The notes under the pieces are model-generated. The model saw nothing but the letters and a program-made list of their open reading frames with translations, was not told where the DNA came from and did not search any database. A program made the translations under genes and the position numbers. A stretch of 64,000 bases of DNA from Myxococcales bacterium (GTDB taxonomy: Bacteria; Myxococcota_A; UBA9042; JABWCM01; BTVJ01): positions 49,326 through 113,325 of the forward strand of contig BTVJ01000018.1 in NCBI GenBank assembly GCA_045863395.1. The letters are read 5' to 3'. Positions 1 through 15,324 of the stretch are shown here, in pieces. Every line of letters starts with the position of its first letter. Position 1 is the stretch's first letter.

Positions 1-470
1 CAGTAGAGAGCCGGCACGCTCTTCTTGTCGACGACCTTGAGTGCCTTGTCGAAGGGCTCGCTGGCACACACCCGCTTCCTGAACTCGGCGTTCTTGCCAC
101 GCAGGGCCACCTCGGCCCAGTAGGTGCCCTTCTCGAAGGCGGCGAGCATGTCGGCCTTCTTCTCCTCGTCGAACCGCAGGTGCCCGTCCCCGAGGAAGTA
201 CCAGGCCCGCGACAGGCGCACCATCAGGTCCGTGTTGGACGGGTCGATCTGGACGGCGCGGTCCCAGGCCTCGATGGCCTTCCGCAGCTCCGCCGGGTCG
301 CTGCGCTTCGCCCAGTGGGCCTCGCCCTCCTTCTCCGCCGCGCCGGCGTCCCCTTGGAGCGTCCCCTTCGAGTAGAGGTCGTCGGCGCAGAGCCCCGACT
401 GGCGCGACGCGCCGCACGCGGTGAGGGTCGCGAGGACGGCGATGGTGGCCGCCGTCATGATGCTACGCAT
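1..470 (-). CDS. TPR lipoprotein, probably TRAP transporter TatT-component-like (runs off window edge)
   Basis: Missing from the ORF track and translated by hand from ATG 470 (SD GGAG): MRSIMTAATIAVLATLTACGASRQ...AELRKAIEAWDRAVQIDPSNTDLMVRLSRAWYFLGDGH...VPALYW. Lipobox LTAC, TPR-like helices. Confidence 0.65.
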   Translation of the reverse strand, partial: MRSIMTAATIAVLATLTACGASRQSGLCADDLYSKGTLQGDAGAAEKEGEAHWAKRSDPAELRKAIEAWDRAVQIDPSNTDLMVRLSRAWYFLGDGHLRFDEEKKADMLAAFEKGTYWAEVALRGKNAEFRKRVCASEPFDKALKVVDKKSVPALY

Positions 471-540
471 GGTCTTCTCCTTCCTCGGGCTGGCGACGAA
501 GCTCGTGCCGTCTGTCTATGCGGGTGTCCGTCGGCGAACC

Positions 541-570
541 GTTATACCCGGCGCCGCTGGAACCGGTCAA
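541..570 (-). promoter_or_regulatory. sigma70-type promoter for the TPR lipoprotein gene
   Basis: Minus strand TTGACC-N18-TATAAC. Confidence 0.5.
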
Positions 571-600
571 CCTGAAACCGGAATGCGCCCCAGCGCGACC

Positions 601-1164
601 CTACCAAGCGAGCCGGGATGCGATGGCCGTGACCGTATACAGGATGGCGAGCCAAATGAAGTACACGGCCCCCACGAAGGGCCAGCGCTTCTCCTCGGGG
701 ACGCCGTAGAACGTGGGCGCGGCCACGTACACGAGCCATGCACCGTAGCCGACGCCGGCGAACATCAGGTACTCGCCGAAGGTCAGCCGCAGGATCATGA
801 GCAGCGCGCTCAGCGCAGCGACCGCCGCGATGGGGAAGCTCGCCCAGGCGAAGAGGCGTACCCCGTTGTCCCCAGCCGCCCGCGCCCCGAAGTACGGCAC
901 GAGCAGGTCGACCACCCGGGCCATGGCGAAGACGGCGCCGATGACGGCGCCGATCTGCAGCACTGCGAACACCAGGAAGTACCCGAGGAGCCCATAGGTG
1001 AGGCCCGCGATGACGATGAGCGCCATGGCCACGCTCAACGCGAGGGCCAGCTCGATGATCGCCTGCTGCTTGTCCTCGGGGGCCGTGTAGAGCCGGTCCC
1101 AGGTCACGGGTGTGGGCTTGGTCAAGATCTCGATGGCCCTCGCCAGCACGGCCTGGTAGCTCAC
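601..1164 (-). CDS. Yip1-family multi-pass membrane protein
   Basis: 187 aa, about 5 hydrophobic helices, N-terminal 'ILTKP..TW' pattern typical of bacterial Yip1 proteins. GTG start with SD AAGGGAG. Confidence 0.7.
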   Translation of the reverse strand: MSYQAVLARAIEILTKPTPVTWDRLYTAPEDKQQAIIELALALSVAMALIVIAGLTYGLLGYFLVFAVLQIGAVIGAVFAMARVVDLLVPYFGARAAGDNGVRLFAWASFPIAAVAALSALLMILRLTFGEYLMFAGVGYGAWLVYVAAPTFYGVPEEKRWPFVGAVYFIWLAILYTVTAIASRLAW

Positions 1165-1192
1165 GACGCACTCCCTTGCCGGGTGCCCCCGA

Positions 1193-2680
1193 CTACTTCA
1201 GCAAGAAGACCATCTCCGAGTTTCCAATGCGGATCTCGTCGCCGTCCTTCAGGAACTGCTTGGTGATCTTGCGACCGTTGACCAGCACCCCGTTGGTCGA
1301 GCCGAGGTCCGCGAGCTCGTAGCGCAGATCCTCGATCTTGATGCCCGCGTGGCGCCTCGACACAGACGAGTCGTCGATGACGATGGAGTTGCCCTCCATG
1401 GACCCGATGGTCGTGACGGCCTCGGTCAGGTAGTACTCCATGCCCGCGCAGGGCCCCTTCGTGACCTGCAGCCGGCCACGGCTCGGCCCCTGCGGACCCG
1501 ACTCGATGACGACGACCTCGGGCTCGGGGGGGGGCCGCTCCGCGCGGCGGCGCAGGTAACCGGCGATCAGCTTGTAGATGAGGATCAGCAGGATGAGGCC
1601 GCCGAGCCCAATCCCGATCCACATGAGCAGCGTCTTCCACGCGAAGGGCTTCTCAGCCAGGTGCACGTCGCGGTCGGCCACGGTGGTCAGCTCCGCGCCC
1701 GCGACCTTCGCCTTCATCTGGAACTTGACGCGCCGCCCACCGTCCAGGTCCTCCGGCTTGAGGGTGACCACGTACTGGCGCTTGATCTGCTCGGCGAGCT
1801 CCTCCCACGTCCGCTCGATGTCCGACCGGCTGGACTCGTCCGAGAGCAGCAGCGAGAAGCCGTTGGTCTTGTTGGAGAGGTCGCGCAGCGCGGGCAGGCC
1901 CTTCGTGGCGATGGTCGCATACCCGAGGCTGTAGACACGGATCCCCGACTCGGACGCCGTCTTGGCGATGTCGTCCACGAGCTTGCTGATCCGCTGCGGG
2001 TCCTTCTCCAGCTTGGAGTCGAGCCCGTCGGACATGATGACGATGACCTTCCGCCGCGTGGTGTCCAGGCGCCCGAACTCGTCCCGGATGCCCGCCCCGA
2101 GCTCACGCAGGAGCCGCTCGTAGAGGTTCAGATCCACCGACTTGTTCGGGTCTGGCTCCAGCCCCTCGTCGTCGTAGGTCTTGAGCTCGATACGCTCGAT
2201 GTCGTCGCCGGTCTTGGGGCCGCCCTCCTGGAAGGAGAGCTTCCGCTGGAAGTCCTTCTCGTCGTAGACCCACAGGGCCACGCGGTCGGTGGGGCGCAAG
2301 CGCTGCGCGAGCTTCTGCGCGCCGGCGATCCCGACCTTCAGGGGGGGCGCCTGGAGGGTGTCAGCGTTGATGCGGTAATCGAAGTTCGCGCCGATGATTA
2401 CCGCGACCGCCACGGACTCGGGCGTCTCGAAGTAGGGCTCGACCTTGATCGACCCCGTGATGGCCTTGTCGTCGATCAGGATGGTCAGCGCATCGGGCGC
2501 CAGGTCGGGCACCACCCGGCCATCGTCGTCGAGCAGGTCGACGAAGAAGCGGATCTCATTGCGCTCCACGAACCGCGTCGCGTCGATGTCGTCGATGCGG
2601 AAGGACTTTGCAGCCGCGGGCACGGCAAGCGCGACCAGGGTCGCTCCGACGAGCATCAGGAGGGTGCGTGCTCTGATCAT
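1193..2680 (-). CDS. Signal peptide - VWA-like domain - TM helix - cytoplasmic FHA domain protein
   Basis: Signal peptide (…VPAAA). VWA-like 'RKVIVIMSDG', 'GIRVYSLGY', 'LSNKTNG'. TM WIGIGLGGLILLILIY. C-terminal FHA (IGS…VSRRHA…DLGSTNG). Confidence 0.85.
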   Translation of the reverse strand: MIRARTLLMLVGATLVALAVPAAAKSFRIDDIDATRFVERNEIRFFVDLLDDDGRVVPDLAPDALTILIDDKAITGSIKVEPYFETPESVAVAVIIGANFDYRINADTLQAPPLKVGIAGAQKLAQRLRPTDRVALWVYDEKDFQRKLSFQEGGPKTGDDIERIELKTYDDEGLEPDPNKSVDLNLYERLLRELGAGIRDEFGRLDTTRRKVIVIMSDGLDSKLEKDPQRISKLVDDIAKTASESGIRVYSLGYATIATKGLPALRDLSNKTNGFSLLLSDESSRSDIERTWEELAEQIKRQYVVTLKPEDLDGGRRVKFQMKAKVAGAELTTVADRDVHLAEKPFAWKTLLMWIGIGLGGLILLILIYKLIAGYLRRRAERPPPEPEVVVIESGPQGPSRGRLQVTKGPCAGMEYYLTEAVTTIGSMEGNSIVIDDSSVSRRHAGIKIEDLRYELADLGSTNGVLVNGRKITKQFLKDGDEIRIGNSEMVFLLK

Positions 2681-2711
2681 GGCCTCTCGGGTGGGTGTGG
2701 GCGGTGGAGGG

Positions 2712-3434
2712 TCAATACAGCGACTTGAACTTCAGCTCCGTCCTGCCGAGCCGGATCTTGTCGTTGTCGATCAGCTCCTCCTTGGAGATGCGACGATCAT
2801 TCAGATAGGTGCCGTTGGTCGAGTCCAGGTCGATGAGCGTGAACCGCCCGTTCTCGTGCCGGATGGCCGCGTGCTTCGACGACAGGTAGGCGTCGGTCAG
2901 CACGATGTCGCAGTCCGCCGCCGTGCCGATGACGTTGCGCCCCGTGACCAGGCGGAAGTCGTGGCCACGGTGCGCGCCGCCCAGCGCAACGATCCAGCCC
3001 ACGCAGTCCTGTGCCCGGTCATCCATGATCTCCGAGACGTTGACCATCTGGGTCTTGTCGCTCTCGGAGAACTGCTCCACCGCCGCCTGCTGTGCGCGCT
3101 GCTGCTGCGGGGCCTGCTTCTGGCTACTCTTCTTCTTTCCGAAGAACCCCATGCCCTTCTCACCGCCCTGCTTGGTGTCCTGAGCAGCCCCGCCCTTCTT
3201 CTCCCCCTGAGCCGCCTGTCCCGCCTTCTCGCCGGCCTTCTGTCCGCCGCCCTTCTGGCCCTTGATCTTGGCCTGCAGCGCCTGCCCCGGCTTGTCCACC
3301 GCGGCGTTGAACTTGGAGGCCGCCTTGCTCTTCGCCTGGGCCTGGGCCGAATAGATCTTCCCTTTGACCCTCGCCTGTGCGCTGGATGTGCGCGACCGGA
3401 CAAGTCCCTTGAAGAAGTCGATGATCACCTGCAT
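2712..3434 (-). CDS. FHA-domain protein with Lys/Ala/Gln/Gly-rich N-terminus
   Basis: C-terminal FHA (IGT…LSSKHA…DLDSTNGTYLN). Start set at ATG 3434 (MQVIIDFFK). Confidence 0.85.
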   Translation of the reverse strand: MQVIIDFFKGLVRSRTSSAQARVKGKIYSAQAQAKSKAASKFNAAVDKPGQALQAKIKGQKGGGQKAGEKAGQAAQGEKKGGAAQDTKQGGEKGMGFFGKKKSSQKQAPQQQRAQQAAVEQFSESDKTQMVNVSEIMDDRAQDCVGWIVALGGAHRGHDFRLVTGRNVIGTAADCDIVLTDAYLSSKHAAIRHENGRFTLIDLDSTNGTYLNDRRISKEELIDNDKIRLGRTELKFKSLY

Positions 3435-3541
3435 GTGCGAGCTGCCCAGCGTCGAGGTATCAGCGATCAGGCGAGTGACGTCAAGATCGTCGCACAGGCC
3501 CCCCCCGCGGTCAAGGACACTCGCCCCCGGGGCAAGCCGTG

Positions 3542-5083
3542 CTACGCAGGCTGGTACGCCCACACGTGGAACATGTTGATGTCACGCGCCGCGCTCCGGT
3601 ACGTGAAGCGGATCTGGACCTGGTCCTCCTCGATCATGTCACCGGGGATGATGTACGGCCAGTTGCGCCACCGGTACTTGCGATCCTTACCCGTCACGGC
3701 CCACGGCTCCGCCTTCTTGCCGTTGACCAGCGCGTCGGCCTGCCAGTCGCCGTGCGTGTAGTCGATGCGGAACACGAGGATGAGCTGCCGCCCGAGCTTC
3801 ACGTTCTTGATGGTGAACTGGCAGGTGCCGCCCTCGAAGGCCACGCCCTCGTCCTTGACCGCGGTGCCCTCCTCGGTGTCCGGGTACTTGAACTGCTGGC
3901 GCGAGCGGTATTGGTCGGTGAAGTCCCTGATCTCGAAGGCGTGGGCGCCCTCGCTCTGCGCGTTGAGCACGTCGATCTCGTCGCACATGAGGAAGGTGGA
4001 CCCGTCGAGCTTCAGCTCCTTCTCGAAGGGCGCGCTGCGGATCTTGATCTTGTCCCAGGCGACCTCCGCCTGGGCCGCCTCCAGCCGGGGGGCCTCCTTG
4101 GCGCGCAGCTTGTGCTCGAACAGGCCCTGCAGGGCCTCGCACGCCTTGGTCTGGAACCCGATGATGTGGTTCACCAGATCCATGCCCGTCTTGTCCTCCT
4201 GGTAGATGTTCCGGAGGTAGCGGATCTGGTTGCCGTAGTTGGCGAACTCCCGGGTGGAGGCGTGCTGCGGGTGCTGCGTCTCCAGCTCGCGGATCATCTC
4301 CTCTTCCAGGTCGATGAGCCGCAGGTTCATCCGCGGCAGGTTCCGCAGGTCGATCTGGTTGCACATCAGCAGCATCTCGACGGTCAGGTAGGCGTAGAGC
4401 ACGTCGCCCGCCCGGCGGATGTCCAGGTCGTGGTACAGGTACGAGTAGGTGGTCACGGCGAGCTTCGCGAGCTGCTGGATCCGGAAGATGGTGTACGGAT
4501 CGAGGAAGGTCCCCACGACTCCGGCGATGGGCACGAAGCGCAGATCCAGCTCGTTCTCGCGCGGATCGTGCGGGTTCTTGGCGTCCGAGAGCTTCTTGAC
4601 GTCCGACGTCAATGCCACGCGGGCAAGCTCGATCTCGCGGTTGAGATCGGGCTCCACGGCCGTCCACTCGATGCGGGACTTCTCGCTGATCCGCTTGTGG
4701 CCCTTGAACTCCGGGTTCTCCTTGTAGGCCACGTAGTCCGTGGGCTCCTCCAGGTAGCGGAGCACCAGGTACACGGTCTGCGGGAGCTTGAAGTCCGTGG
4801 GGTTCAGGACCTTGATCTCCGGCTCCGGGCGCCAGATGTCGCTGCCGGTGCCGTCGATGGCATAGCCGGGCTGGATCTCCACCGCCAGCTCGTTGCGCCC
4901 ACGCGCCGACACGCGCAGCCCGCCCGTCGCGGTCAGCACCACGCCCGGGCCATGGAACATGCGGTTGTGCAGCCGGTGCTTGTCGACGTGGTAGCGCTCC
5001 GCGTCGTTCCAGTCGTGCTCCGTGGTCATGAAGCCACGGAAGAAGTTGATCCTCTTGAACACCGCGCCGCCGTTGTCGGCCAT
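3542..5083 (-). CDS. CIS baseplate-associated / tail-fibre-like protein with C-terminal beta-sandwich
   Basis: N-terminus KRINFFRG…YH…RLHNR…HGPGVV…GLRV…IQPGYAIDGTG, the pattern of eCIS baseplate/fibre-attachment proteins. Directly downstream of the baseplate genes. SD AGGAG. Confidence 0.7.
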   Translation of the reverse strand: MADNGGAVFKRINFFRGFMTTEHDWNDAERYHVDKHRLHNRMFHGPGVVLTATGGLRVSARGRNELAVEIQPGYAIDGTGSDIWRPEPEIKVLNPTDFKLPQTVYLVLRYLEEPTDYVAYKENPEFKGHKRISEKSRIEWTAVEPDLNREIELARVALTSDVKKLSDAKNPHDPRENELDLRFVPIAGVVGTFLDPYTIFRIQQLAKLAVTTYSYLYHDLDIRRAGDVLYAYLTVEMLLMCNQIDLRNLPRMNLRLIDLEEEMIRELETQHPQHASTREFANYGNQIRYLRNIYQEDKTGMDLVNHIIGFQTKACEALQGLFEHKLRAKEAPRLEAAQAEVAWDKIKIRSAPFEKELKLDGSTFLMCDEIDVLNAQSEGAHAFEIRDFTDQYRSRQQFKYPDTEEGTAVKDEGVAFEGGTCQFTIKNVKLGRQLILVFRIDYTHGDWQADALVNGKKAEPWAVTGKDRKYRWRNWPYIIPGDMIEEDQVQIRFTYRSAARDINMFHVWAYQPA

Positions 5084-5113
5084 GCGTCTCCTCCTGGAGG
5101 GGATACCCCGGGT

Positions 5114-6010
5114 CTATGGCTCCGCGGGCTCCTCGGGCGCCTCGTCCATGACGAGGCCGCTCCCGATGGCCGAACCCACGCCGATCTGCATGATGCCCAG
5201 GACCCCCGACTCGCGCCGCTTCTCGGCGAAATCGAGCCAGTAGATGGTGTGGGCGGGCTTCTCGTTCTGGATGATCTGATGGATCTTCATCAGGGCGTCC
5301 TCCGTGATCTCATCCGCCGCGAAGGGCAGCCGCACGATGAAGCAGTGCGACCGGTTCATGGGCGGCAGGATCACCGCGTCGACCCCCACGACGGAGGACA
5401 CCCCCACCTGGAAGCCCCTGTGGGGCCAGCGGTTCTCTTCCACCTCAGGGGCGAGGCCCGTGAAGATCTCGAGGAAGATGCGCAGCGCCCGCGCGGTGCC
5501 GCGGATGTTGTAGAGCTCTGCCGCCCGCCGGATCAGCCGCCGCTTGCGGTCCACCGGCCAGTCCGGGTCCAGCGTCAGCGCCAGCCAGGACGCGAGCCAC
5601 GGCAGGAAGTCCTCACGGGTCTCCAGGGGCCGGAAGAGCCGATCCATGGAGTCGATGTTCCCCTGCAGCGAGTCGTGCAGGTGGTGGAAGATCCACAGGT
5701 AGCGGCGCAGGAAGTCGCTGTCGACGCCCGTCCCGCTCATCTGGTACACGCTCGGCAGGTGCCGCACCAGGCTCTGCTTGATCACGTGGAGCTTGACCAC
5801 GGCGCTGGAGTCCACCATGTGGCCCCGCGGCGGATCCTGGGACACCACCGAGTCCTCCGCTCCGTAGCTCTCGGTGAAGTGCACCTGTCCCGGCGGAAAC
5901 CCGGCGCTCCGCAGAACGATCTGCGCGTCGTCCACGTGCAATCCGACCAGGTCGGGCAGGACGCGCTTGCGGCTGGGGAGCCGCGACGGGGTGGGTGTCT
6001 TGGTCGCCAC
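5114..6010 (-). CDS. PASTA domain fused to phage tail protein I / gp7-like baseplate wedge domain
   Basis: N-terminal VLPDLVG…AQIVLRSAGF…VVSQDPPRG…VKLHV (PASTA). C-terminal FLRRYL…FLPWLASWL…RRLIRRAAELYNIRGT (tail-I/TIGR02242-type). Confidence 0.85.
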   Translation of the reverse strand: MATKTPTPSRLPSRKRVLPDLVGLHVDDAQIVLRSAGFPPGQVHFTESYGAEDSVVSQDPPRGHMVDSSAVVKLHVIKQSLVRHLPSVYQMSGTGVDSDFLRRYLWIFHHLHDSLQGNIDSMDRLFRPLETREDFLPWLASWLALTLDPDWPVDRKRRLIRRAAELYNIRGTARALRIFLEIFTGLAPEVEENRWPHRGFQVGVSSVVGVDAVILPPMNRSHCFIVRLPFAADEITEDALMKIHQIIQNEKPAHTIYWLDFAEKRRESGVLGIMQIGVGSAIGSGLVMDEAPEEPAEP

Positions 6011-6013
6011 GGG

Positions 6014-9000
6014 CTACACGATCCTCTCGTGGGCCTTCTCGACGACCTCGACGCCCACGAGGTGAGGGAGCTCATCGGGAGCGAGCCGGAGCTGCTCCAC
6101 CTCGGTGCGCCTCTCGGAGTCGATGATCCGGACCAGATCCACGAAGTCGACGCCGTCGACGTTCTCGATGACGTGGTAGAGGTCCACCTTGAACACGGCG
6201 CGCCCGAAGGGCCAGCCCTTGCCGTCGCGTCCACCGGCCAGCGGGTTCAGGAAGCGCCACAGGTTGGCCTGGATGTCGCGCTTGATGCGGTCGCTGGACC
6301 CGGAGGACCGCCGCACGATGCGCACCTCCACGGACATCTCCACGTAGCGCGGCTTCACCACGTTGACGATGGTGGTCAGGAGCTTCCGCTCATTGAGGTA
6401 GGTGCGCACCCGGCGCAACAGCTCCGTCGACGGGATGGGCTTCTCCAGCAGGTTGGCCGTGCCATCCTGGAGGCGCGGCAGCTTCGGAACGACGATGACG
6501 GTCACCTGCCCCTCCCGGTCGGTGGAGGGGAGCGCCTTCACGCGCGCTACGCTGTTCGACGCCTCCCGGCTCAGCCACTCGAAGTCCTCCGCCGTCACGG
6601 CGCGGTTCCTGGACTTGAGCATGTGGGGACCACGCAGCTTGGCGTCCTCGACCGACTCCAGGTCGCAGCCGCCGCTCGCTGGGAACGGGTTGGTCACCGC
6701 GTCGAGATAGGAGAAGCTCTGCTTCATGACGGTGATCGTGTCGGCGGCAACGTTCCCCTCCACGCCGCCGCCCACCTGCCACGCGCTCGCGATGATGTTC
6801 TTCTCGCCCTTGGGTGGGACCATGCCGCGGGTGCCGTCGCCGAACCGGATCTCGCTGGTCACCGTGTCCTTGACGTAGTGCCTGCTGCGGGGGCCGCTGT
6901 CGTAGAGGTTGTCCACCTGATGCCACGTGATCAGGTACTCGGTCGTGAACTCAGGATCCTGTCGGAACGCGTCCTCCCCCTCCTCCGCTACGATGATGTC
7001 GATCTCGTCCCGCGAGGGGCGCTCGCGCTCCCGGATGACCACCCGCTGCCCGTCGAGCACCGGCGTCCGCGGGAAGGTGAACTTCTGGTTGGGCGTCCCC
7101 TGACTCGAGCCGAGGAGGCTGTCACGGAACGTCGAGATGTTCAGCGAGTAGCCGCAGTTGAGCAGAATCCGCTCCACGCGCGGCGGCACGTCGTAGCCGC
7201 CCATCTCCAGCCGCGCCCGCAGCCAGTAGAGGTTCTCGCCGAAGCGCTTGCTGGTGCGCAGGTCCTTGGGGCCCACGAACTGCACGAAGCCCGACTGCGT
7301 GAAGTTGTTCGTCCAGTCGTGCGGCAAGAGAGGGCTCCACGCCTTGCCCGACCAGTACTCCCAGACGACGCGCTGCTCGGCCGTCTCCCCCTCCAGCTCC
7401 GCGATCGCCCGAGGCTGCCGCCGCTGCCAGGCGCCGGACCGGCCAGGGAGGTTGCCGCCCGACGACTCGTCCACCGTGTGGAAGTAGATCTGGCACGTCG
7501 CGTTCGGGAATGGCTCGTTGAAGCCGAGGAAGATGGTCGGGCTCTCCTCGGCCACCGGCTGGAAGGCCTGGAAGGCGCGCCCCCCGCTCGCCGCCGTGGC
7601 CGTGTGGTCCGTGTACACGAAGTCGTTGAAGGACATGCAGTGCTTGAAGGGGCGGGGCTCCTCCGAGAAGCGGAACGCGATGGCCTTGAAGGTCGGGGGC
7701 CGCAGCGGCCGCTCGTCGCGCCACACCCACCGATCCTCGACGTTCTCGTAGGCGCCCGGCACGCCGTAGTCGCCCTGCTCCACGCGCACCCGCAGCCACA
7801 GCCCGGTCTCGTCGTTGACCCGTGTCGCCTCCAGGTTCTTGGGGCGCTGGAACGTGAGCACACCGGACTTGGTGAAGGCGTTGGTCCCGTCCTGGAAGCC
7901 ATACCAGCCTGGCTCGTCTGCCGGTACCCCGAAGGGAGTCGTCCGCCCGAGGAGGGTCCACTTCTTGCCGTTCCAGAACTCCCACCGCAGCTTCAGGTCC
8001 TGTGAAGCCACCGGGGCCTCGGCGACGCTCGGATCGCTGAGCTGCACCTCGATCTCGATGGTCGCGCCGTCCTGCGACAGGATGCTCTCGCACGCCACAT
8101 AGAACATGGCGTCGACTCGCGGCTCTCGGTCGAACGGCAGGAAGTTGCGGTCCATGTCTCGCGGCAGGAACAGGTCGCCGTCCACGTTGGCGATGGCGCG
8201 GTCCGGCGGCACCCCCTCGCCGCTGATCTCGAGGCGGCCGAAGACCGTCTCGATCATGGTCTCCTCGGCGGAGCGGGGCACCTCGATGAGGCGCCCGCGA
8301 ATCCAGTACTCCTCCGTATCGTTGACCATGGTCTTGGCCATGGTGGGCGGCCCCATGAACGCGACCATGTTCGGGTCGACGTCCTTCGGGTGCAGGTAGA
8401 GCTCCCGCCACCGCTCGCCGTTCCAGTACTCCCACTCCAGCAGGCGCGTCAGCTCCCGGTCGCTCCGGTGAGGGCAGTGGAACTGCACCGTGAGCACCGC
8501 GGCCTCGTTGAAGTTCTCGAAGCGCGGGTCCCCCAGGTAGATGTAACGATCGATGGCGCGGGTGCCCACGAACGGGTTGAAGCCGCCGCGCCCGCCGCGA
8601 GCCTCTTCGGTGACGTTGGTGATCAGGGTCTTGCCCGACTCCGGGTCGTGCTCCTGGACGACCACGCGCTGCATGACCGTGTTGACCACGGTCACGTCCT
8701 CCTCGGTCTCGAAGGCGATCGCGCGGCTCCCCGCCCCAGCCTTCGTGGAGAACGCGGACCCTCGCGGGATGGTCAACGAGTCGGTCTTGTCGCTGAGCGT
8801 GAAGGTCAGCAAGGCCCGCGCCGGCTGGGGCGGCTGGAGCGTCACCCCCATCAGATCCAGGAAGGCGAGGTAGTTCTTGTCCGGGACCCGGTTGAGCCGG
8901 TAGAGCGCCATCTCCATCATCCAGGCGAACAGCTCGATGAGCGTGATGCCCGGATCGCTGGCGTTGAAGTTGGTCCACTCCGGGCAGTACTGCGGGATCA

Positions 9001-9064
9001 GCCGGATCGCCTCGTCGACGATGTCCTCGAACTTCCGGTCGTCCAGGTTCGGCGTCGGGATCAT
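6014..9064 (-). CDS. Putative baseplate assembly protein (gp6/baseplate-J-like, eCIS Afp11/TIGR02243-type), 1016 aa
   Basis: PNLDDRKF…WTNFNASDPGITLIELFAW…YRLNRVP; IRFGDG..G.VP; GGG..GNV; RAVTAEDFE; GWPFGR. Confidence 0.93.
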   Translation of the reverse strand: MIPTPNLDDRKFEDIVDEAIRLIPQYCPEWTNFNASDPGITLIELFAWMMEMALYRLNRVPDKNYLAFLDLMGVTLQPPQPARALLTFTLSDKTDSLTIPRGSAFSTKAGAGSRAIAFETEEDVTVVNTVMQRVVVQEHDPESGKTLITNVTEEARGGRGGFNPFVGTRAIDRYIYLGDPRFENFNEAAVLTVQFHCPHRSDRELTRLLEWEYWNGERWRELYLHPKDVDPNMVAFMGPPTMAKTMVNDTEEYWIRGRLIEVPRSAEETMIETVFGRLEISGEGVPPDRAIANVDGDLFLPRDMDRNFLPFDREPRVDAMFYVACESILSQDGATIEIEVQLSDPSVAEAPVASQDLKLRWEFWNGKKWTLLGRTTPFGVPADEPGWYGFQDGTNAFTKSGVLTFQRPKNLEATRVNDETGLWLRVRVEQGDYGVPGAYENVEDRWVWRDERPLRPPTFKAIAFRFSEEPRPFKHCMSFNDFVYTDHTATAASGGRAFQAFQPVAEESPTIFLGFNEPFPNATCQIYFHTVDESSGGNLPGRSGAWQRRQPRAIAELEGETAEQRVVWEYWSGKAWSPLLPHDWTNNFTQSGFVQFVGPKDLRTSKRFGENLYWLRARLEMGGYDVPPRVERILLNCGYSLNISTFRDSLLGSSQGTPNQKFTFPRTPVLDGQRVVIRERERPSRDEIDIIVAEEGEDAFRQDPEFTTEYLITWHQVDNLYDSGPRSRHYVKDTVTSEIRFGDGTRGMVPPKGEKNIIASAWQVGGGVEGNVAADTITVMKQSFSYLDAVTNPFPASGGCDLESVEDAKLRGPHMLKSRNRAVTAEDFEWLSREASNSVARVKALPSTDREGQVTVIVVPKLPRLQDGTANLLEKPIPSTELLRRVRTYLNERKLLTTIVNVVKPRYVEMSVEVRIVRRSSGSSDRIKRDIQANLWRFLNPLAGGRDGKGWPFGRAVFKVDLYHVIENVDGVDFVDLVRIIDSERRTEVEQLRLAPDELPHLVGVEVVEKAHERIV

Positions 9065-9468
9065 AGATCTTGCTCTCTGCGCAGGTAGAACGGGTAGACG
9101 AGGTTGCGAATGGCGTTGGTGCGGATCACCCGGTAGGAGACGTCGACCAGCATCACGTTCTCGTTGGCTGAGTCCGGGTAGGCCGACACCTTCAGATCAT
9201 CGATGCGCGGCTCCCACTTCACCAGCGCCTCGCGCACGTGGTAGGACACCAGCGAAGCCGTGGACGCGTTGTTGGGGTGGAACACGTACTCATGGATGCG
9301 GCAGCCGAAGTCGGGCCGCATGACGCGCTCCCCCGGCGCCGTGCCGAGGATGAGCAGGATCGCCTGCTCGATGGTCTCCTCGCCCTCCTTCTGGGCGATG
9401 TTCCCCGTCGCGTTGACGGTGAGTGGGTACGCCCATCCGACTCCGAGGAACGACTTCTTCCTGGCCAC
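9061..9468 (-). CDS. GPW/gp25-family baseplate protein
   Basis: FLGVGWAYP…IL.T.PGERVMRPDFGC…WEPRI…NLVYPFYL. GTG start at 9468; ATGA overlap with the next gene. Confidence 0.95.
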   Translation of the reverse strand: MARKKSFLGVGWAYPLTVNATGNIAQKEGEETIEQAILLILGTAPGERVMRPDFGCRIHEYVFHPNNASTASLVSYHVREALVKWEPRIDDLKVSAYPDSANENVMLVDVSYRVIRTNAIRNLVYPFYLRREQDL

Positions 9469-9539
9469 GTGCTGCCCCTTTCCAGTCGCCCTGCCCCGCC
9501 CCACCAGCAGCCGCGCAACCCCGCGCGGCTACGGTCACC

Positions 9540-9728
9540 TCACGCGAGGCGCCCGTCGAAGTATCGGCCGCAATTCGGGCACTCCAGCCGGATGTGCACC
9601 TCGTCGGCCTCGACCTCCAGCGTCCCCTTCTTGCAGTACGGGCACTTGTGGCCCTCCGTGCGCCCGTTGTAGACCTCGTCGACGATGTCCTGCAGGAGAT
9701 CGAGATCTTCGTAGGATAGCTCGCCCAT
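9540..9728 (-). CDS. Small (62 aa) zinc-ribbon protein
   Basis: MGELSYEDLDLLQDIVDE…CPYC…CPNC. Strong SD GAGGAG upstream of ATG 9728. Confidence 0.7.
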   Translation of the reverse strand: MGELSYEDLDLLQDIVDEVYNGRTEGHKCPYCKKGTLEVEADEVHIRLECPNCGRYFDGRLA

Positions 9729-9842
9729 CCGTCCTCTCCTCATCCACTGCCGGCAGAGACCGGGTTCGCGCAAGGGCTGCGGATCGCGCCTCACCGCCGG
9801 GCCACCACCCGCAAGAGAGACGACGCTCATCGAGGCCAGCCG

Positions 9843-9870
9843 ATAATAGCGATCCCCCCCGGCATGTCAA
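9843..9870 (-). promoter_or_regulatory. Near-consensus sigma70 promoter for the Zn-ribbon/baseplate operon
   Basis: Minus strand TTGACA-N16-TATTAT. Confidence 0.6.
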
Positions 9871-9963
9871 GCGGCAACGCCAGGAGCAATAGCTTGATTT
9901 CTCAAGAGATCCGCGACTGTGGAGGGCGACGACGGCGCCGAGGTCAGCGCAGGAGGAGGAGGA

Positions 9964-11715
9964 TCAGTTGCTGACGCTGGGCTTGTAGATGGGCGCCTCG
10001 TAGCTGACGTTGACCTTCTGCTTGGGCTCCAGGACCTCGTTGAAGAAGATCGCCTGGCCCGCGCCGCAGTCGTCCGCCGGACGGATGACGTAGTCCTTGT
10101 CCTCGCCCTCCTCCAGCGCCTTGAAGGTGCCGTCCGCGAAGGTCTTGGTGACCGTGATGCCCGTGCCGAGCTTCACGGGCTCGTCCACACAGATGCGCAC
10201 CACACGACGGAGGATGGTGTCGGCGATCTTGTCGAGGGCCTCGCCGAAGCCGGCCGGGCTGCAGATGTTGGTGGCGACGCCGTTCTTTCCGAAGGCCTTG
10301 ACGACCTGCAGATACCGCCCGCCCCAGTCGGACTGGCCCACTGCGCTCTCGCAGATGTAGGTGTTCTTGGCCAGCGGCCCCGGCCCGCCCTTTGACTTGA
10401 GGTAGGCGCGGATGCGCTCCTCCTCGCACTCCGCCGCGTCCTGACCTGCCTTGGTCGGGCACTTGAGGGCGCCGGTGGGGTCGCTGCCGGGAGCGGGCTT
10501 GCCGTCACCCGTGCCGACGACGCCGCCGACGATGGCGGCGACCAGGACGCGCGACGGGTCCGAGTTGACGCTGCGGAGCCCGTTGATGAACGTGCTCACG
10601 GGCTCCAGCGGCCCCTTGCCCGACGAGTCCTTCCAGGTCTTGGGCACGTACTCGCTGTCCGCGATGTCCCCCCCGATGGGGTCTTTGCCGTCCGTGTCGC
10701 CGAGCAGGCCGCACACCTGCCAGGCCTCGGCGACGAGGGTGCCGTTCTTCAGGAACTTCTTGGGCATCTGGGGGGAGACGCTGCAGTCCTCCTCGTCGGA
10801 CACGAAGATGATCACCTGGTAGGCGTCTTGCCGCAGGAAGCTCTTGGCCTGGTTGGCGTTGGGGCCGTTGACGTCCAGCGCAAGGAGCGCCGTGCGGAGG
10901 CCCATCTCGAGCTGCGGGTTCTTGTCCTGGAGGGCTCCGACCACCGCCATGCAACGGAACAGGTCTGCGACCGTCTGCCCCTCGGCGGCGGCGACCTCCG
11001 CGTCCACCCACGCCGGGAGCTTCGCCGGGCACCCATCGACGGCGGGCGGGTTGATGCAGCCTCGCAGGCTCATGTCGCCGCCGGGTGCGATGCACTGGTA
11101 GCGGCACGTGTCTCCGCCGCTCACCAGCTCCCCACAGCACTGGGCGCTCGTCGAGGCAGGCGTCGTGTTGTCGGTGCAGGACTTTCGGCAGTTGGAGTTG
11201 AGCGATCCGTTGGTGTTGGTCAGATACTGCGCCCCCTGGCTCGGCGGCTCGCACACCCACCCGGACGGCGTCGGGACCTTGCCCTTGAGCGCCTTCTCGC
11301 AGTCGCCGTCCGTCAGGCACTTCTCCACGCGCCGCTCCAGACAGTTCGGCGGGAAGGGCTTGGGCAGCTCGTGGTGGAACTTGCCCATCTCCTTCTCGGA
11401 CAGGCCGTCGGTGGTCACCACGGCCAGGCGAACGTCCACATTGACGAAGCCGGTGATCTTGCCAATGAACTCGTTGATGTTCGCCGCGAGCGCGTTCTGC
11501 TCCTGGCACATGGACACCGAGTTGTCGATGACCCAGAGGATGTCCAGCTTCACGGCGTCCGTGTTGCTGCGCTCGTCTGTGACCTGCGCCGAGAAGGAGT
11601 CGAGCACTCCCGCCACCGGCACGTCATTGCAGGCGGCGCCGAGGCCGGCTGCCAGGATCAAGGAGGGGGACAGCCACGCGAGCCTCTGTGACAAGCGCTT
11701 CCGACTGGTGATCAT
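9964..11715 (-). CDS. Cys-rich VWA-domain lipoprotein (myxobacterial CglB-like family)
   Basis: Lipobox GAAC. MIDAS DILWVIDNSVSM, LEMGL, FLRQDA…IIFVSDEEDCS, many Cys. Confidence 0.75.
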   Translation of the reverse strand: MITSRKRLSQRLAWLSPSLILAAGLGAACNDVPVAGVLDSFSAQVTDERSNTDAVKLDILWVIDNSVSMCQEQNALAANINEFIGKITGFVNVDVRLAVVTTDGLSEKEMGKFHHELPKPFPPNCLERRVEKCLTDGDCEKALKGKVPTPSGWVCEPPSQGAQYLTNTNGSLNSNCRKSCTDNTTPASTSAQCCGELVSGGDTCRYQCIAPGGDMSLRGCINPPAVDGCPAKLPAWVDAEVAAAEGQTVADLFRCMAVVGALQDKNPQLEMGLRTALLALDVNGPNANQAKSFLRQDAYQVIIFVSDEEDCSVSPQMPKKFLKNGTLVAEAWQVCGLLGDTDGKDPIGGDIADSEYVPKTWKDSSGKGPLEPVSTFINGLRSVNSDPSRVLVAAIVGGVVGTGDGKPAPGSDPTGALKCPTKAGQDAAECEEERIRAYLKSKGGPGPLAKNTYICESAVGQSDWGGRYLQVVKAFGKNGVATNICSPAGFGEALDKIADTILRRVVRICVDEPVKLGTGITVTKTFADGTFKALEEGEDKDYVIRPADDCGAGQAIFFNEVLEPKQKVNVSYEAPIYKPSVSN

Positions 11716-11866
11716 GTCAACGTCTCCGTGTGTCGCTGCTCCCGAGCGACGCGACTGCGTTGGTGGCGTGGTGCGGTTCCGGGCGCCGCCCGATTTGGGA
11801 AGTATAGAGCCGCCCCCCGGTGGCTACAAGTCCGATGCCAGGTCGCACGTAACGGCGGTGAGGCGG

Positions 11867-13081
11867 TCAGCAGGGGCCCGGGGTGTACTGCATGATGCCG
11901 AAGCACTCGGCCGCGCAGGGGTTGGGGTAGGTCAGCCCGTCGACTCCGCAGACCGGGTCCTGCTGGTTCATGTCACACTTGCAGACGCACACGTCGTCAT
12001 AGAGCACGGCGACGCCGACCGCCGCCGAGAAGCACTGGTTCGGGTAGGTCTTGAAATCGGTCCCACACACGGGCGCCAGGTCCTTCTCGCACTCGGGGCA
12101 GGTGGCGTTCGAGAACACCATCGCCCCCTCGCAGGTGGCGAAGCAGTCGTTGCGGTAGCTCTTCACGTTGTTGTCCATGCCCCAGCCGCACACCGGCGCG
12201 CACGACGTGCTGCAGGCGGCGCACGCCGGGTTGCCCGCGAAGTCGCTCGGGCAGTTGCCGGCGCAGGCGAGCGTGGCCTCCGAGCACTTGGTGTTCTGGA
12301 CGTGGCAGGAGTTGGGGTAGGTCTTGCCGTCGGTGCCGCAGACCGGCCAGTCCTGCTTCCCGCAGTTGCAGGCCGACTTGCAGGGGCCGCAGTTCTTGAA
12401 CGTCAGCGCCTCGACGCCCTCGTTGGCGCAAGAGAAGTCGCACCAGTCGGTGTACGTCTGGTCCGCCTTGTCGCAGTACTGGGCGTCTGGACCGCAGTCC
12501 AGGTTGGGGGGCGGTGCCTCGCACACACACGCGGCGCAGTCCTGGAGCAGGCACTTTCCGTCGAGCAGGTCCTGGAGGGAGATGCCCCCGCACTGGGCGA
12601 AGCAGTCGTTGGCGTAGTCCACGCCATCACAGCAGAGCGGGAAGTAGCCCTTGTCGATGCACTTGTTCTTCTCTTCGCAGGGGAGGTCCTCCACGTCGCC
12701 GGCGTCTTCCGTGTCCGCGGGCTCCGTGGCGTCTCCGTCGTCCTCGCTCCCCGTGTCCTCGGTGTCCGTCACGGAGCCGGCGTCGCTGCCGGTGTCGGTG
12801 ACCTGCACGTCGGGTGTGACCGCCGTGTCGCCCCCTGCGTCGGAGGCGGTGTCGCCGGAGGTGGAGCCGTCGGGGATCGCCGAGTCCGGCTGGTCCCCCG
12901 TGTCGGCGGTGCTCGTATCGCCCACCCCGCCAGCATCTGCCGTGTCCTCATCATTTGTGACATCGACGTTCCCGGACGGGGTGCCGGTCGTGTCATCCGA
13001 CGGGCAGGCCGAGAGCGCGATGAAGGCGGCGACGCCCGTGAAGAGGCCCAGGCGGTTGAGCAGGGCGCGGGTCGATGTCAT
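11867..13081 (-). CDS. Lipoprotein with acidic stalk and six Kazal-type repeats
   Basis: Lipobox LSAC, D/T/G/A linker, repeats such as [42 protein letters not shown]. Confidence 0.85.
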
Positions 13082-13153
13082 GCGGGTCCTCATGCAGGTC
13101 CTCATCAAGGGCTGGTCCTGGTGTTGCCAGGTCGGGAGCTGTCAGCTTCGGGG

Positions 13154-13183
13154 AGTCTAGCACCGCCTCCGAGCGACGATCAA
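13154..13183 (-). promoter_or_regulatory. sigma70-type promoter for the Kazal lipoprotein
   Basis: Minus strand TTGATC-N18-TAGACT with extended -10 TG. Confidence 0.4.
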
Positions 13184-13278
13184 CCTCTGCGTCCCCTGAC
13201 GGGGTCAGTTGACCGCGTTCACCGGGGCGACCAGAATGCCGTGCCAGTGAAACAGCAGAGATCACGGGAGTGGCGCCC

Positions 13279-15324
13279 ATGACACCGAGCACCGCAAGAC
13301 GACTCGCTGGGGAGCGGTCGCCCCACCTGCGCCAGCACGCCGGAGACCCCGTCGACTGGTGGCCCTGGTGCCCTGACGCCTTCGCACGCGCGCGGGAGGC
13401 CGACCTGCCCGTCCTCCTGTCCGTCGGGTACGCGGCCAGCCAGCTCTGCCAGGCCATGGGGGCGGAGAGCTTCGCTGACCCAGGGATCGCGTCCGAGGTC
13501 GACGGGCGGTTCATCTGCGTGAAGGTGGACCGGGAGGAGCGCCCGGACGTGGACCAGCTCTACCAGACCGCCGCCCAGCTCGCCATCGGCAGGGGGGGCT
13601 GGCCCCTGACGGTGTTCCTGCTTCCCGACGGGCGCCCCTTTCACGTGGCGACGTGGCTGCCCCGCGAGTCCCGGCCGGGGCAGCCCTCGCTGAAGGACGT
13701 GCTCCGCGTGGTGCACGAGGCCTGGGCTGCTCGGCGGCCGGACCTGGAGGCCCAGGCCGCCACGTGGCTGGACTCCCTGCGGCGGCTGGAGCCCGCGCGC
13801 CCGGCCGCGCCGACGGTGGAGCTGGTAGACGACGCCTGCGACGCCCTGGCGGCCCGCTTCGACGGGGTAGACGGCGGCTTTGGCCGCGCGCCCAAGTTTC
13901 CATCGACCCCGGCCCTGGCCCTCATCGGGCGCCAGGCGCGCCGCACGGGGGAGCCGCGGTGGCGCGACATGGTCCACACGAGCCTCGAGCGGATGGCGGA
14001 GGGAGGCATTCGCGACCACCTGGACGGCGGATTTCACCGCTATGCGGCGGATAGTCGCTGGTTGTCACCGCATTTCGAGAAGATGCTCCCGGACAGCGCG
14101 CTCCTCGCAGTGGCCTACCTCGATGGTTGGCACCTGACTGGAGACGAGGGGTTCCTGGAGGTCGCGCGGGAGACCCTCGGGTTCATGGAGCGGCGCCTGC
14201 TGCGGGGGGATCTCTTCGCGGGCTCCATCGACGCCGACGCGCCCCCCGGCGGCTACTACCGCTGGACCCGGACCCAGGTGGAGGACACCCTGGGACCCGA
14301 GCATGCCCGCGCCTTCTGTTTCGCCTACGGGGTGCCCGAGCGGACCGATGAGGCCGTCGCCCTGCACCTCCCGCGGCCCTTCTCCGTGAGCGCACACCGG
14401 CTCGGGCGGTCCCTGGAGGATCTGGAGGCCCTGCTGGCGAGCTGCCGCCTGGCGCTCCTGAAGCGGCGCTCCGAGCGCCCGGCGCCGGCGACCAGGGCCA
14501 ACGTGGTGGTCGCATGGAACGCGCTCGCGATCCGCGCCTTCGCCCGCGGGTGGCGAGCGACCGGCGACCGGGCGCTGCTGCTTCGAGCCACGGAGACCGC
14601 AGGCGCGCTCCTTCGGGGGGCCCTCGACGCCAGCGGACTCCTCTGCCGGGTGATTGTCGATGGAGCCCCGTTTCAGCCCGCATTCCTCGATGACCACTCG
14701 TTCTTGGCGGATGCACTGCTCGATCTGCATGAGGCAGACCCCAGCGGCCCATGGGTCTCGCGGGCTCGTTGGCTCGCTGACGAGCTCCTCTCGCGGTTCC
14801 TCGATGAGTCGGGGAGCAAGCTCTCGCTCTGCTCCGAGGCCCACGGGCCCCTGGCGCACCGCCCCGGCGCAACCTGGGACCAGTCGGAGCCCAGCCCCGC
14901 GGCCATTGCCGTGCGTGTGCTCCTGCGGCTCCACCAGCTCGAGGGGGACCAGCGCGCCTGGGACGCCGCCGAGCAGGTGCTCGTCGGCCAGGGCGAGGCG
15001 ATGCGGGCCAACCCCGCAGCGCACGCCACGCTCATCGCGGTCGCGGACCGCTTCATCCAGCCGCCGGTGACGGTGGTCGTCGTGGGGAGCCCCGAGGACG
15101 CCCGCGCCGAGGAGCTGCGAGCGGCGGCGGCTCGGGCTGGCGACCCGGGAGCAGCGATTGTCTGTGTCCCCGACGACGATCCGCGCTTGGCGCCGGGCTC
15201 AGGTCATCCACTCTTCGCGGGGCGCGGCGGCACCTCCGGAGCAGCCGCCTGGGTGCGAGTCGGCCACGCGTGGGAGGGGCCAGTGGCGACGCCACAGGAG
15301 CTCGTGGCGACCCTCCGCCGATGA
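13279..15324 (+). CDS. Thioredoxin-domain protein YyaL/SSP411 (DUF255 + six-hairpin glycosidase-like)
   Basis: SPHLRQHA.DPVDW, KVDREERPDVD, GGWPLTVFL, GGFGRAPKFP, PHFEKML. Confidence 0.9.
   Translation: MTPSTARRLAGERSPHLRQHAGDPVDWWPWCPDAFARAREADLPVLLSVGYAASQLCQAMGAESFADPGIASEVDGRFICVKVDREERPDVDQLYQTAAQLAIGRGGWPLTVFLLPDGRPFHVATWLPRESRPGQPSLKDVLRVVHEAWAARRPDLEAQAATWLDSLRRLEPARPAAPTVELVDDACDALAARFDGVDGGFGRAPKFPSTPALALIGRQARRTGEPRWRDMVHTSLERMAEGGIRDHLDGGFHRYAADSRWLSPHFEKMLPDSALLAVAYLDGWHLTGDEGFLEVARETLGFMERRLLRGDLFAGSIDADAPPGGYYRWTRTQVEDTLGPEHARAFCFAYGVPERTDEAVALHLPRPFSVSAHRLGRSLEDLEALLASCRLALLKRRSERPAPATRANVVVAWNALAIRAFARGWRATGDRALLLRATETAGALLRGALDASGLLCRVIVDGAPFQPAFLDDHSFLADALLDLHEADPSGPWVSRARWLADELLSRFLDESGSKLSLCSEAHGPLAHRPGATWDQSEPSPAAIAVRVLLRLHQLEGDQRAWDAAEQVLVGQGEAMRANPAAHATLIAVADRFIQPPVTVVVVGSPEDARAEELRAAAARAGDPGAAIVCVPDDDPRLAPGSGHPLFAGRGGTSGAAAWVRVGHAWEGPVATPQELVATLRR

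Follow-up and report, generated by a model that had tools for sequence, protein, structure and literature searches.

A contractile injection system baseplate block in a Myxococcales genome and its FHA and VWA membrane-protein companions

The baseplate block and the rest of its injection system

We analysed a stretch of 64,000 nucleotides from a Myxococcales bacterium (contig BTVJ01000018.1, here C18, positions 49326-113325 of an 8.8-Mb assembly that is 97% complete; hereafter the window), which at 601..9870 carries baseplate genes of a contractile injection system (CIS) followed by genes for two proteins with FHA domains. An earlier note on this DNA had described eight co-oriented minus-strand genes, mostly with short gaps, behind a near-consensus sigma70 promoter. 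This description held: all eight open reading frames are present with a coding-type GC bias at third codon positions, and their domains are matched by Pfam and NCBIfam. Those homologues that carry names come from uncultured Myxococcota. In the order of reading, the features are as follows (window positions).

9843..9870, minus strand: sigma70-type promoter-like site, TTGACA-16-TATTAT (recognised by consensus match, 11 of 12)
9540..9728, minus strand: Zn-ribbon protein, 62 aa, conserved, its gene immediately preceding gp25 in most related Myxococcota loci
9061..9504 (start 9471 or 9504), minus strand: gp25/Afp9-type sheath initiator (PF04965, E 1e-26)
6014..9064, minus strand: baseplate J/gp6/Cis11-type wedge protein, 1016 aa (PF04865; TIGR02243 above cut-off)
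5114..6010, minus strand: wedge protein with PASTA and Tail_P2_I domains, gp7/Cis12-type and TssG-like (PF03793, PF09684, TIGR02242)
3542..5083, minus strand: 513-aa protein, TssK/IglD-like by structure model (no Pfam match; weak N-terminal match to CIS13_fam, below cut-off)
2712..3434, minus strand: FHA1, 240 aa, with a non-canonical FHA domain (G-T, S-S-K-H; Pfam FHA, co-occurrence with the baseplate)
1193..2680, minus strand: predicted bitopic protein of 495 aa with signal peptide, VWA domain, transmembrane (TM) helix and FHA domain (G-S, S-R-R-H; TIGR03436 E 4e-7, model and fold search, co-occurrence), hereafter VWA-TM-FHA
601..1164, minus strand: Yip1-domain membrane protein, co-oriented (PF04893, just above cut-off)

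From the Zn-ribbon gene to the Yip1 gene the gaps measure 68, -4, 3, 30, 107, 31 and 28 bp. Promoter-like sites of the quality found at 9843..9870 number two in 12 kb, against 0.7 +/- 0.8 in shuffled sequence. Separate transcription of the FHA genes had been suggested on account of a TTGACG element in the 107-bp gap. This element is weak and was not listed by the promoter scan, its hexamer occurs 40 times in 128,000 bases (both strands), and the gap folds no better than shuffled sequence (z -1.24), so that an internal promoter or terminator at this place found no support. RNA from four runs of four studies was mapped on window positions 1-15000, in every case as assembled contigs; the long ones span flanks, opposite-strand genes and gaps alike, and thus show neither expression nor co-transcription.

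Genome-wide family searches placed the matches to tube, sheath, spike OB-fold, PAAR, VipB, DotU, IcmF and PF22977 on other contigs only, and none of these families is therefore represented in the window. To this extent the earlier statement that the window lacks such genes stands; the tape-measure, lysis and prophage genes that it also named were not the object of a separate window search. The label 'baseplate-only' likewise fits the window and fails for the genome, where the tube, sheath, spike/PAAR, LysM and AAA genes that the note had proposed to look for were all found. Profile searches identified on contig C80 genes for Pvc16, sheath 1, tube 1, a chaperone-like protein, DUF6760, sheath 2 and tube 2, in addition to a low-complexity protein of 1573 aa at the place of a tape measure, a CIS_tube-LysM protein and a GPD hub, the last being missed by the Phage_GPD genome search and detected by hmmscan. 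On contig C90 lie genes for the half of VgrG with the spike OB-fold, for PAAR and DUF2169 proteins and for a protein of 282 aa; an operon on C97 (17692-21794) encodes an FHA-coiled-coil protein, an AAA ATPase and DUF1257; and C54 holds a DUF4157 gene. The structural set of extracellular CIS (eCIS), comprising gp19 tubes, gp18-type sheaths, CIS_tube-LysM, hub/spike, PAAR, gp25, gp6/gp7 and Pvc16, is thus spread over C18, C80 and C90, and all structural genes of a complete CIS exist in this genome. PF22977, the winged-helix domain of Afp15-like ATPases, has 16 matches in the genome, none of them on the CIS contigs, and is matched inside the CIS cluster of some Polyangia. The AAA ATPase that co-occurs with the CIS is presumably of the Ycf46 type.

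The blocks terminate inside their contigs, and the split is therefore real. In 24 of 40 loci of relatives, the Zn-ribbon/gp25 genes are immediately preceded by the hub gene, and eight of nine upstream stretches fetched contain the sheath-tube block. Relatives thus mostly have one contiguous operon, and the arrangement in the present genome is a lineage-specific rearrangement. Sheath 1 and tube 1 are 84-88% and 82-90% identical, respectively, in five relatives from four other families, with one copy per genome. These data support a split-locus CIS, as proposed earlier, and one that is kept vertically. The window may well represent, at slightly less than an even chance, the baseplate-and-tether block of a CIS with a Tail_P2_I/TssK-like (eBAP3-type) baseplate that is inherited across several Myxococcota lineages.

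Two side observations concern these blocks. The 1573-aa protein of C80 (L007:8242-12963) is rich in Ala, Gly and Arg with conserved C-terminal 120 residues, and is a candidate for tape-measure-related cargo. An orphan PAAR gene with a C-terminal extension (C10:26375-26968; L159) resembles the PAAR protein of C90 at its N-terminus.

FHA1 and the VWA membrane protein accompany the baseplate

The association of the FHA genes with the baseplate was evaluated in 60 relatives of the same class and in 151 genomes drawn from the phylum Myxococcota. Among the class relatives, 45 gave a baseplate J (gp6) match. FHA1 was found in 42 of these 45 and in none of the 15 gp6-negative genomes; VWA-TM-FHA and a close AAA orthologue (at least 58% identity) were each found in 42/45 and 1/15, respectively. 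The three gp6-positive genomes without FHA1 comprise two that are 62% and 77% complete, and G052, which has a divergent copy. In the phylum sample, the gp19 tube was detected in 69 genomes, the 513-aa family in 40 and FHA1 in 37. All of the latter belong to the 40 genomes with the 513-aa subtype, while FHA1 was absent from the 111 others (0/111), including 29 with another gp19-type system (0/29); one of the three misses has an FHA1-like match at a contig end. As kin are not independent, no P value is given. Sheath searches in ten chosen genomes gave no match in seven, close matches in G052 and G098, and a distant one in G060.

The 513-aa gene was found at 122 distinct loci, of which 115 had at least 1.3 kb of sequence downstream, and in 92 of these 115 FHA1 lies within 3 kb downstream. 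In those genomes in which it is unlinked (family f8 among others), FHA1 mostly stays with VWA-FHA at another site. In records from Kofleriaceae, Haliangiales and Polyangiaceae the cluster continues with FHA1, a signal peptide-VWA-TM-FHA protein, a TM-Zn-ribbon-FHA protein, an FHA-coiled-coil protein and AAA, and then, in the same Polyangia clusters, with DUF1257, DUF2997, DUF4157 and a pentapeptide protein. As a side observation, the loci L054 (G052) and L163 (G098) hold divergent baseplate blocks, the latter with a second hub gene and a downstream Ser/Thr kinase.

The association extends to spirochaetes. A profile of the head domain of the 513-aa protein (see below) retrieved full-length homologues of 500 aa, including WP_021688035.1 from Treponema lecithinolyticum and a protein from a metagenome-assembled Spirochaetales genome, and a metagenome scan yielded 19 loci, one of them 100% identical to WP_021688035.1. 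At least 1.3 kb of downstream sequence was available for 11 of the 19 spirochaete-like loci (two pairs being near-duplicates). A Zn-ribbon-FHA gene directly follows the homologue of the 513-aa gene in 10 of the 11, and a signal peptide-VWA-TM gene comes next in eight of those 10 (tblastn). Both genes sit between the Tail_P2_I/513-aa genes and those for sheath 2, tube, LysM and hub; AAA, DUF1257 and DUF2997 are found within the same clusters, with gene order otherwise reshuffled. No other observation argues as strongly for the module being integral to the system as this position of the FHA/VWA-TM pair inside the structural genes. In Myxococcota, where the note had called for a check of synteny, and in spirochaetes as well, the linkage of the FHA and VWA-TM genes with the baseplate thus goes far beyond what chance would give; this CIS subtype is constantly accompanied by FHA1 and the VWA-TM protein, and both belong to the system. 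Besides these genes, four spirochaete loci encode a 432-aa secreted-type protein and a lipoprotein-like protein without Pfam match; a radical-SAM-like gene was seen in the spirochaete clusters L198-L210, and L199 has a fused spike/PAAR gene and one for a Peptidase_C39-like protein.

The 495-aa protein is predicted, by structure model and fold search, to consist of a signal peptide-like N-terminus, a beta-sandwich with a VWA domain, a TM helix at about residues 348-380 and a cytoplasmic FHA domain. The VWA domain, weak by profile, was confirmed by model and fold search, and signal peptide and topology were read from hydrophobicity rather than by a dedicated predictor. In 39 of 40 orthologues a single TM helix precedes the FHA domain and is followed by basic residues. 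The metal-ion-dependent adhesion site (D-x-S-x-S...T...D) is degenerate, as Asp is not among the commonest residues of its first motif; the last Asp is kept in 39/40. The FHA domain of the window protein is 51% identical to that of the third Polyangia gene versus 38% to that of the second, so that the protein looks like a fusion of two genes that are separate in Polyangia. The predicted topology fits the role of an inner-membrane anchor, for which the earlier note had put this protein forward. A gene for an outer-membrane-protein-like product lies opposite VWA-FHA in 26 loci, some of them duplicates, from several families (e.g. L019:~5580-6392); it is unlinked in the present genome (C6:39028-39813) and was not counted as part of the system.

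FHA residues were read with our own FHA profile and an automatic classification. Canonical FHA domains bind phosphothreonine through Gly-Arg, Ser-x-x-His and Asn motifs, exemplified by G69, R70, S85, H88 and N107 of Rad53 (PMC5549992; here and below, papers are cited for those parts of their text that were available). At the position of Rad53 Arg70, Arg occurs in none of 97 FHA1 domains (Thr in 90), in 13 of 53 window-type VWA-FHA domains (Ser in 34), and in none of 45 Polyangia-type VWA-FHA or 35 TM-FHA domains; by comparison, it is present in 31/31 FHA-coiled-coil proteins and in 26 of the 34 FHA domains genome-wide. Since both FHA domains of the window lack this phosphate-binding Arg, the simple model of a phosphothreonine reader, which the note had assumed, fails for them. 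In the type VIIb protein EssC, FHA domains without a phosphothreonine site serve as scaffolds (PMC11217815), and the core FHA contacts of the present system are probably phosphate-independent.

FHA1 has an amphipathic/basic N-terminus followed by a K-T-x-x-hydrophobic motif whose Thr128 is invariant (40/40). The form [KR]-T-x-x-hydrophobic precedes the FHA domain in 88 of 99 FHA1 and 45 of 45 Polyangia VWA-FHA proteins, as compared to 2/55 and 0/35 control linkers. It resembles the phosphorylated tail of DgcB, the DgcB/OdhI switches having an acidic-K-T-x-hydrophobic-hydrophobic motif shortly upstream of FHA (PMC6733907). Unlike FHA1, DgcB retains the consensus pocket (R61, S75, R76; PMC6733907); FHA1 has Thr and Ser at those positions, which makes binding of the phosphorylated Thr in cis unlikely. 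A conserved kinase or phosphatase was not found in the cluster (kinase in 14/167 loci, PP2C in 2/167), and spirochaete FHA proteins lack the K-T motif and have an FHA pocket that is further eroded. Phospho-regulation is thus possible in Myxococcota and not part of the core: the Thr motif may be an added switch, in which it would be read by a canonical FHA domain such as that of the FHA-coiled-coil protein encoded with the AAA ATPase. A dedicated kinase beside the C80 block was also considered, and was not established, as close relatives of it occur at the cluster in only 2/167 loci, with uvrA.

The 513-aa protein

The AlphaFold model of the 513-aa protein (mean local confidence pLDDT 86, global score pTM 0.47) shows an N-terminal helix with a beta-sandwich, a helical bundle and a jelly-roll head. 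We accordingly divide it into a shoulder (residues ~8-190), a helical neck (~191-330) and a head with the CBM35/CBM6 fold (~350-513). Foldseek ranked TssK first (E 7e-7) with a TM-score of 0.23-0.27, which is low because of domain hinges. VIA-align gave Z 9.8 with IglD (root-mean-square deviation (rmsd) 11.3, 238 residues aligned) and Z 8.5 with TssK (rmsd 11.1, 259 aligned), the TssK/IglD fold spanning residues 7-330. For the head, CBM35 was matched with Z 11.0 (rmsd 2.5, 121 aligned). Homology to TssK was not detected at the sequence level, the PDB profile search giving 0 matches and hhalign against the putative TssK of the genome a probability of 0.3%. In its model the protein thus has a TssK-like shoulder and neck; the label 'fibre-like' given to it before does not suit this compact shape, which includes no long fibre.

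Of the 164 alignment columns of the head, 36 are conserved to at least 95%; for the shoulder the count is 43 of 183, and for the neck 3 of 140. By this alignment the head is conserved nearly like the shoulder and is not hypervariable. Its closest homologues outside the system have no signal peptide and are fused to Zn-ribbon, FHA (two proteins), kinase-like and EAD5 domains, as judged from Pfam scans of 59 of the 149 head-homologue proteins listed, picked for non-standard length or architecture. The CBM35-fold head also recurs as a stand-alone module and represents an unnamed domain family (L161:6870-8204, L162, P0146, P0153, P0240, P0259).

Proposed docking at the inner membrane and competing readings

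The maintenance of a membrane protein and an adaptor beside the baseplate in two phyla suggests an undescribed mode of envelope anchoring. We favour, tentatively and somewhat short of even confidence, a CIS that docks to the inner membrane through the TssK-like protein, FHA1 as adaptor and the VWA-TM protein as anchor, without TssJLM. The particle would assemble in the cytoplasm; a trimer of the 513-aa protein would bind the TssG-like wedge protein through its shoulder and direct its conserved head at the inner membrane, where FHA1 would form the bridge between it and the tail that the bitopic VWA protein extends into the cytoplasm. The periplasmic domain of the latter would grip an envelope partner, and the particle would fire while docked. 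Firing outward on contact is rather unlikely as the specific outcome, and firing at the producer's own envelope, as in Streptomyces, slightly more so. Docking is proposed by analogy with two systems, namely TssK in type VI secretion (T6SS), where it is the baseplate connector, and CisA in Streptomyces. CisA is a bitopic protein, encoded right after the baseplate, that the Streptomyces CIS requires in order to fire (PMC12237407).

Comparison with described systems shows where the present one departs from them. Like eBAP3/Tail_P2_I eCIS (PMC12923769), it has a Tail_P2_I (TssG-like) gene followed by a TssK-like shoulder gene, a TIGR02243/TIGR02242 wedge, and standard tube, sheath, LysM, hub, gp25 and Pvc16 genes; it falls into the eBAP3 class by gene order and fold. 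Unlike in those systems, the shoulder is extended by a helical neck resembling that of TssK and by a compact, invariant head, separate genes encode hub and spike, and there are constant FHA and bitopic VWA companions as well as the AAA ATPase, taken as Ycf46-type, with DUF1257/DUF2997. With the Streptomyces CIS it shares the wedge type and a single-pass membrane protein (here by predicted topology only) just after the baseplate, which in Streptomyces is the proposed docker. However, CisA combines a disordered cytoplasmic N-terminus with a substrate-binding-like outer domain (PMC12237407), whereas here the predicted topology is reversed, with VWA outside and FHA or Zn-ribbon in the cytoplasm; the TssK-like shoulder protein and the FHA adaptor are further differences, and the hosts are diderm. 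As in T6SS i/ii (TssK, IglD; TagH/Fha), a TssK-like connector follows a TssG-like wedge and an FHA companion is present, but sheath and tube are of the Phage_sheath_1/gp18 and gp19 types instead of TssB/C-Hcp, a cap and a tape-measure-like gene exist, TssJLM and ClpV are not linked, the head fold differs, and the FHA domain lacks its Arg.

Several observations weigh against docking. FHA1 is not adjacent to the 513-aa gene in 23 of 115 loci, G052 and G098, with their divergent copies, gave no FHA1 match, and the genomes behind the co-occurrence counts are related and hence non-independent. The structural match to TssK/IglD is modest (Z 8.5-9.8, rmsd ~11), and TssK-like eBAP3 shoulders have already been reported in systems treated as extracellular (PMC12923769). 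The carbohydrate-binding fold of the head, together with PASTA, fits binding of an outside glycan, and the more distant relatives of the head occur as accessory domains in membrane glycosyltransferases and in DUF2961 proteins that are secreted. The absence of a conserved kinase or phosphatase noted above counts here too, and the Myxococcota clusters contain no conserved outer-membrane channel or lipoprotein.

Some of these points feed an alternative that we judge unlikely, yet serious: the CIS is released, and the 513-aa protein acts as a short fibre for receptor binding, its head, together with the PASTA domain of the wedge protein, attaching to a conserved cell-wall glycan of the target. FHA1, VWA-TM and AAA/DUF1257/DUF2997 would then act inside the producer, in assembly, the loading of cargo, positioning or release, a division of labour that we regard as unlikely to the same degree. 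The fold of the head (Z 11), the glycan-active secreted proteins that carry head-like domains, and an alignment, extending over residues 5-513, with the receptor-binding protein of a lactococcal phage (Z 9.5, rmsd 22.3) speak for it, as do genes of kinds that are typical of eCIS (Pvc16 cap, DUF4157, tape-measure-like). In addition, gp19 clusters, of this or another subtype, that are highly expressed in uncultured Myxococcota were called eCIS in a seamount study whose main text does not contain 'FHA' (PMC11937823; its Table S16 may bear on the point). On the other hand, the head is conserved across two phyla of very different ecology and the homologues nearest to it outside the system look like cytoplasmic proteins; the contiguous clusters, which were not searched systematically for lysis genes, showed none; and single-copy sheath 1 and tube 1 genes as similar across families as those described above are unlike a mobile weapon.

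It is less probable still that VWA-TM and FHA act only as a sensor of signals from the envelope or from contact, which would control whether a free cytoplasmic CIS is assembled or expressed, and do not hold the baseplate. The persistence of the FHA1/VWA-FHA pair where it is unlinked from the baseplate would be explained in this way, the Thr motif has its counterpart in the DgcB/OdhI tails, and TagH of the T6SS offers a precedent (PMC13584744). Yet the spirochaete versions, which have no Thr motif and a more degenerate pocket, lie among structural genes, the FHA Arg is lost in all 97 FHA1 domains, and the cluster contains no conserved kinase or transcription factor. That an orphan or decaying baseplate has acquired FHA/VWA genes as chance neighbours is very improbable: with 34 FHA domains in the genome adjacency could arise by chance in a single genome, and Yip1 is such a neighbour, but the gene set is complete and intact, the frames are open without stops in relatives, and synteny holds in two phyla.

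The structural core of the system is of an already known kind, and there is a real chance that the mode of anchoring is new. The module of FHA, VWA-TM and AAA-DUF1257-DUF2997 was not found described in the literature searched, which leaves out most subscription papers. FHA companions are unmentioned in the available text of the CIS catalogues PMC8213781, PMC12210884, PMC12923769 and PMC12998442, and neither 'forkhead' nor 'PASTA' occurs in the main text of PMC12923769. A broader claim, which we put forward as doubtful, is that of a further class of cell-anchored CIS standing between released CIS and T6SS. In it an eCIS-type tail, docked by way of a TssK-like connector and an FHA adaptor at a VWA inner-membrane complex in place of TssJLM, and assisted by a Ycf46-type AAA ATPase and DUF1257/DUF2997, would fire on contact through a diderm envelope; such systems would be widespread among Myxococcota that are uncultured and would also occur in cultured treponemes.

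From the results emerges, in two phyla, a conserved subtype of CIS that has an accessory module of its own, together with named candidates for a membrane anchor that is neither TssJLM, thylakoid crown nor CisA. They bear on the origin of T6SS from free phage-tail particles, since a TssG/TssK-like baseplate is here found with a different membrane partner. The presence of AAA/DUF1257/DUF2997 genes inside CIS clusters of Polyangia and spirochaetes points to a possible function for these DUFs and for the ATPase. The system may serve uncultured myxobacteria as a main weapon or as a device in their development, and with Treponema lecithinolyticum a cultured carrier of the 513-aa homologue exists, which opens the question to bench work.

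Other neighbours and systems were set aside. Yip1, which the note had included in the docking module, was found in 0 of 60 relatives with the window query and in 0 of 115 loci; it was rejected as a component and is probably a lineage-specific neighbour outside the system. The genome also encodes a separate T6SS in two blocks (C11:89782-98989 and C11:137590-147060, with VipB, DotU and IcmF-like genes); the ClpV-like and other C11 genes beyond these three we take to be T6SS components. DotU was detected in only 5 of 60 relatives, all of one other family, and TssL in 6 of 61 genomes versus the baseplate in 46 of 61, so that borrowing of TssJLM by this CIS was rejected. Upstream of the block, window positions 9964-13108 hold a gene for a 583-aa lipoprotein-like protein and a Kazal-repeat gene, and the closest relative (L017) has the same pair upstream of its baseplate block.

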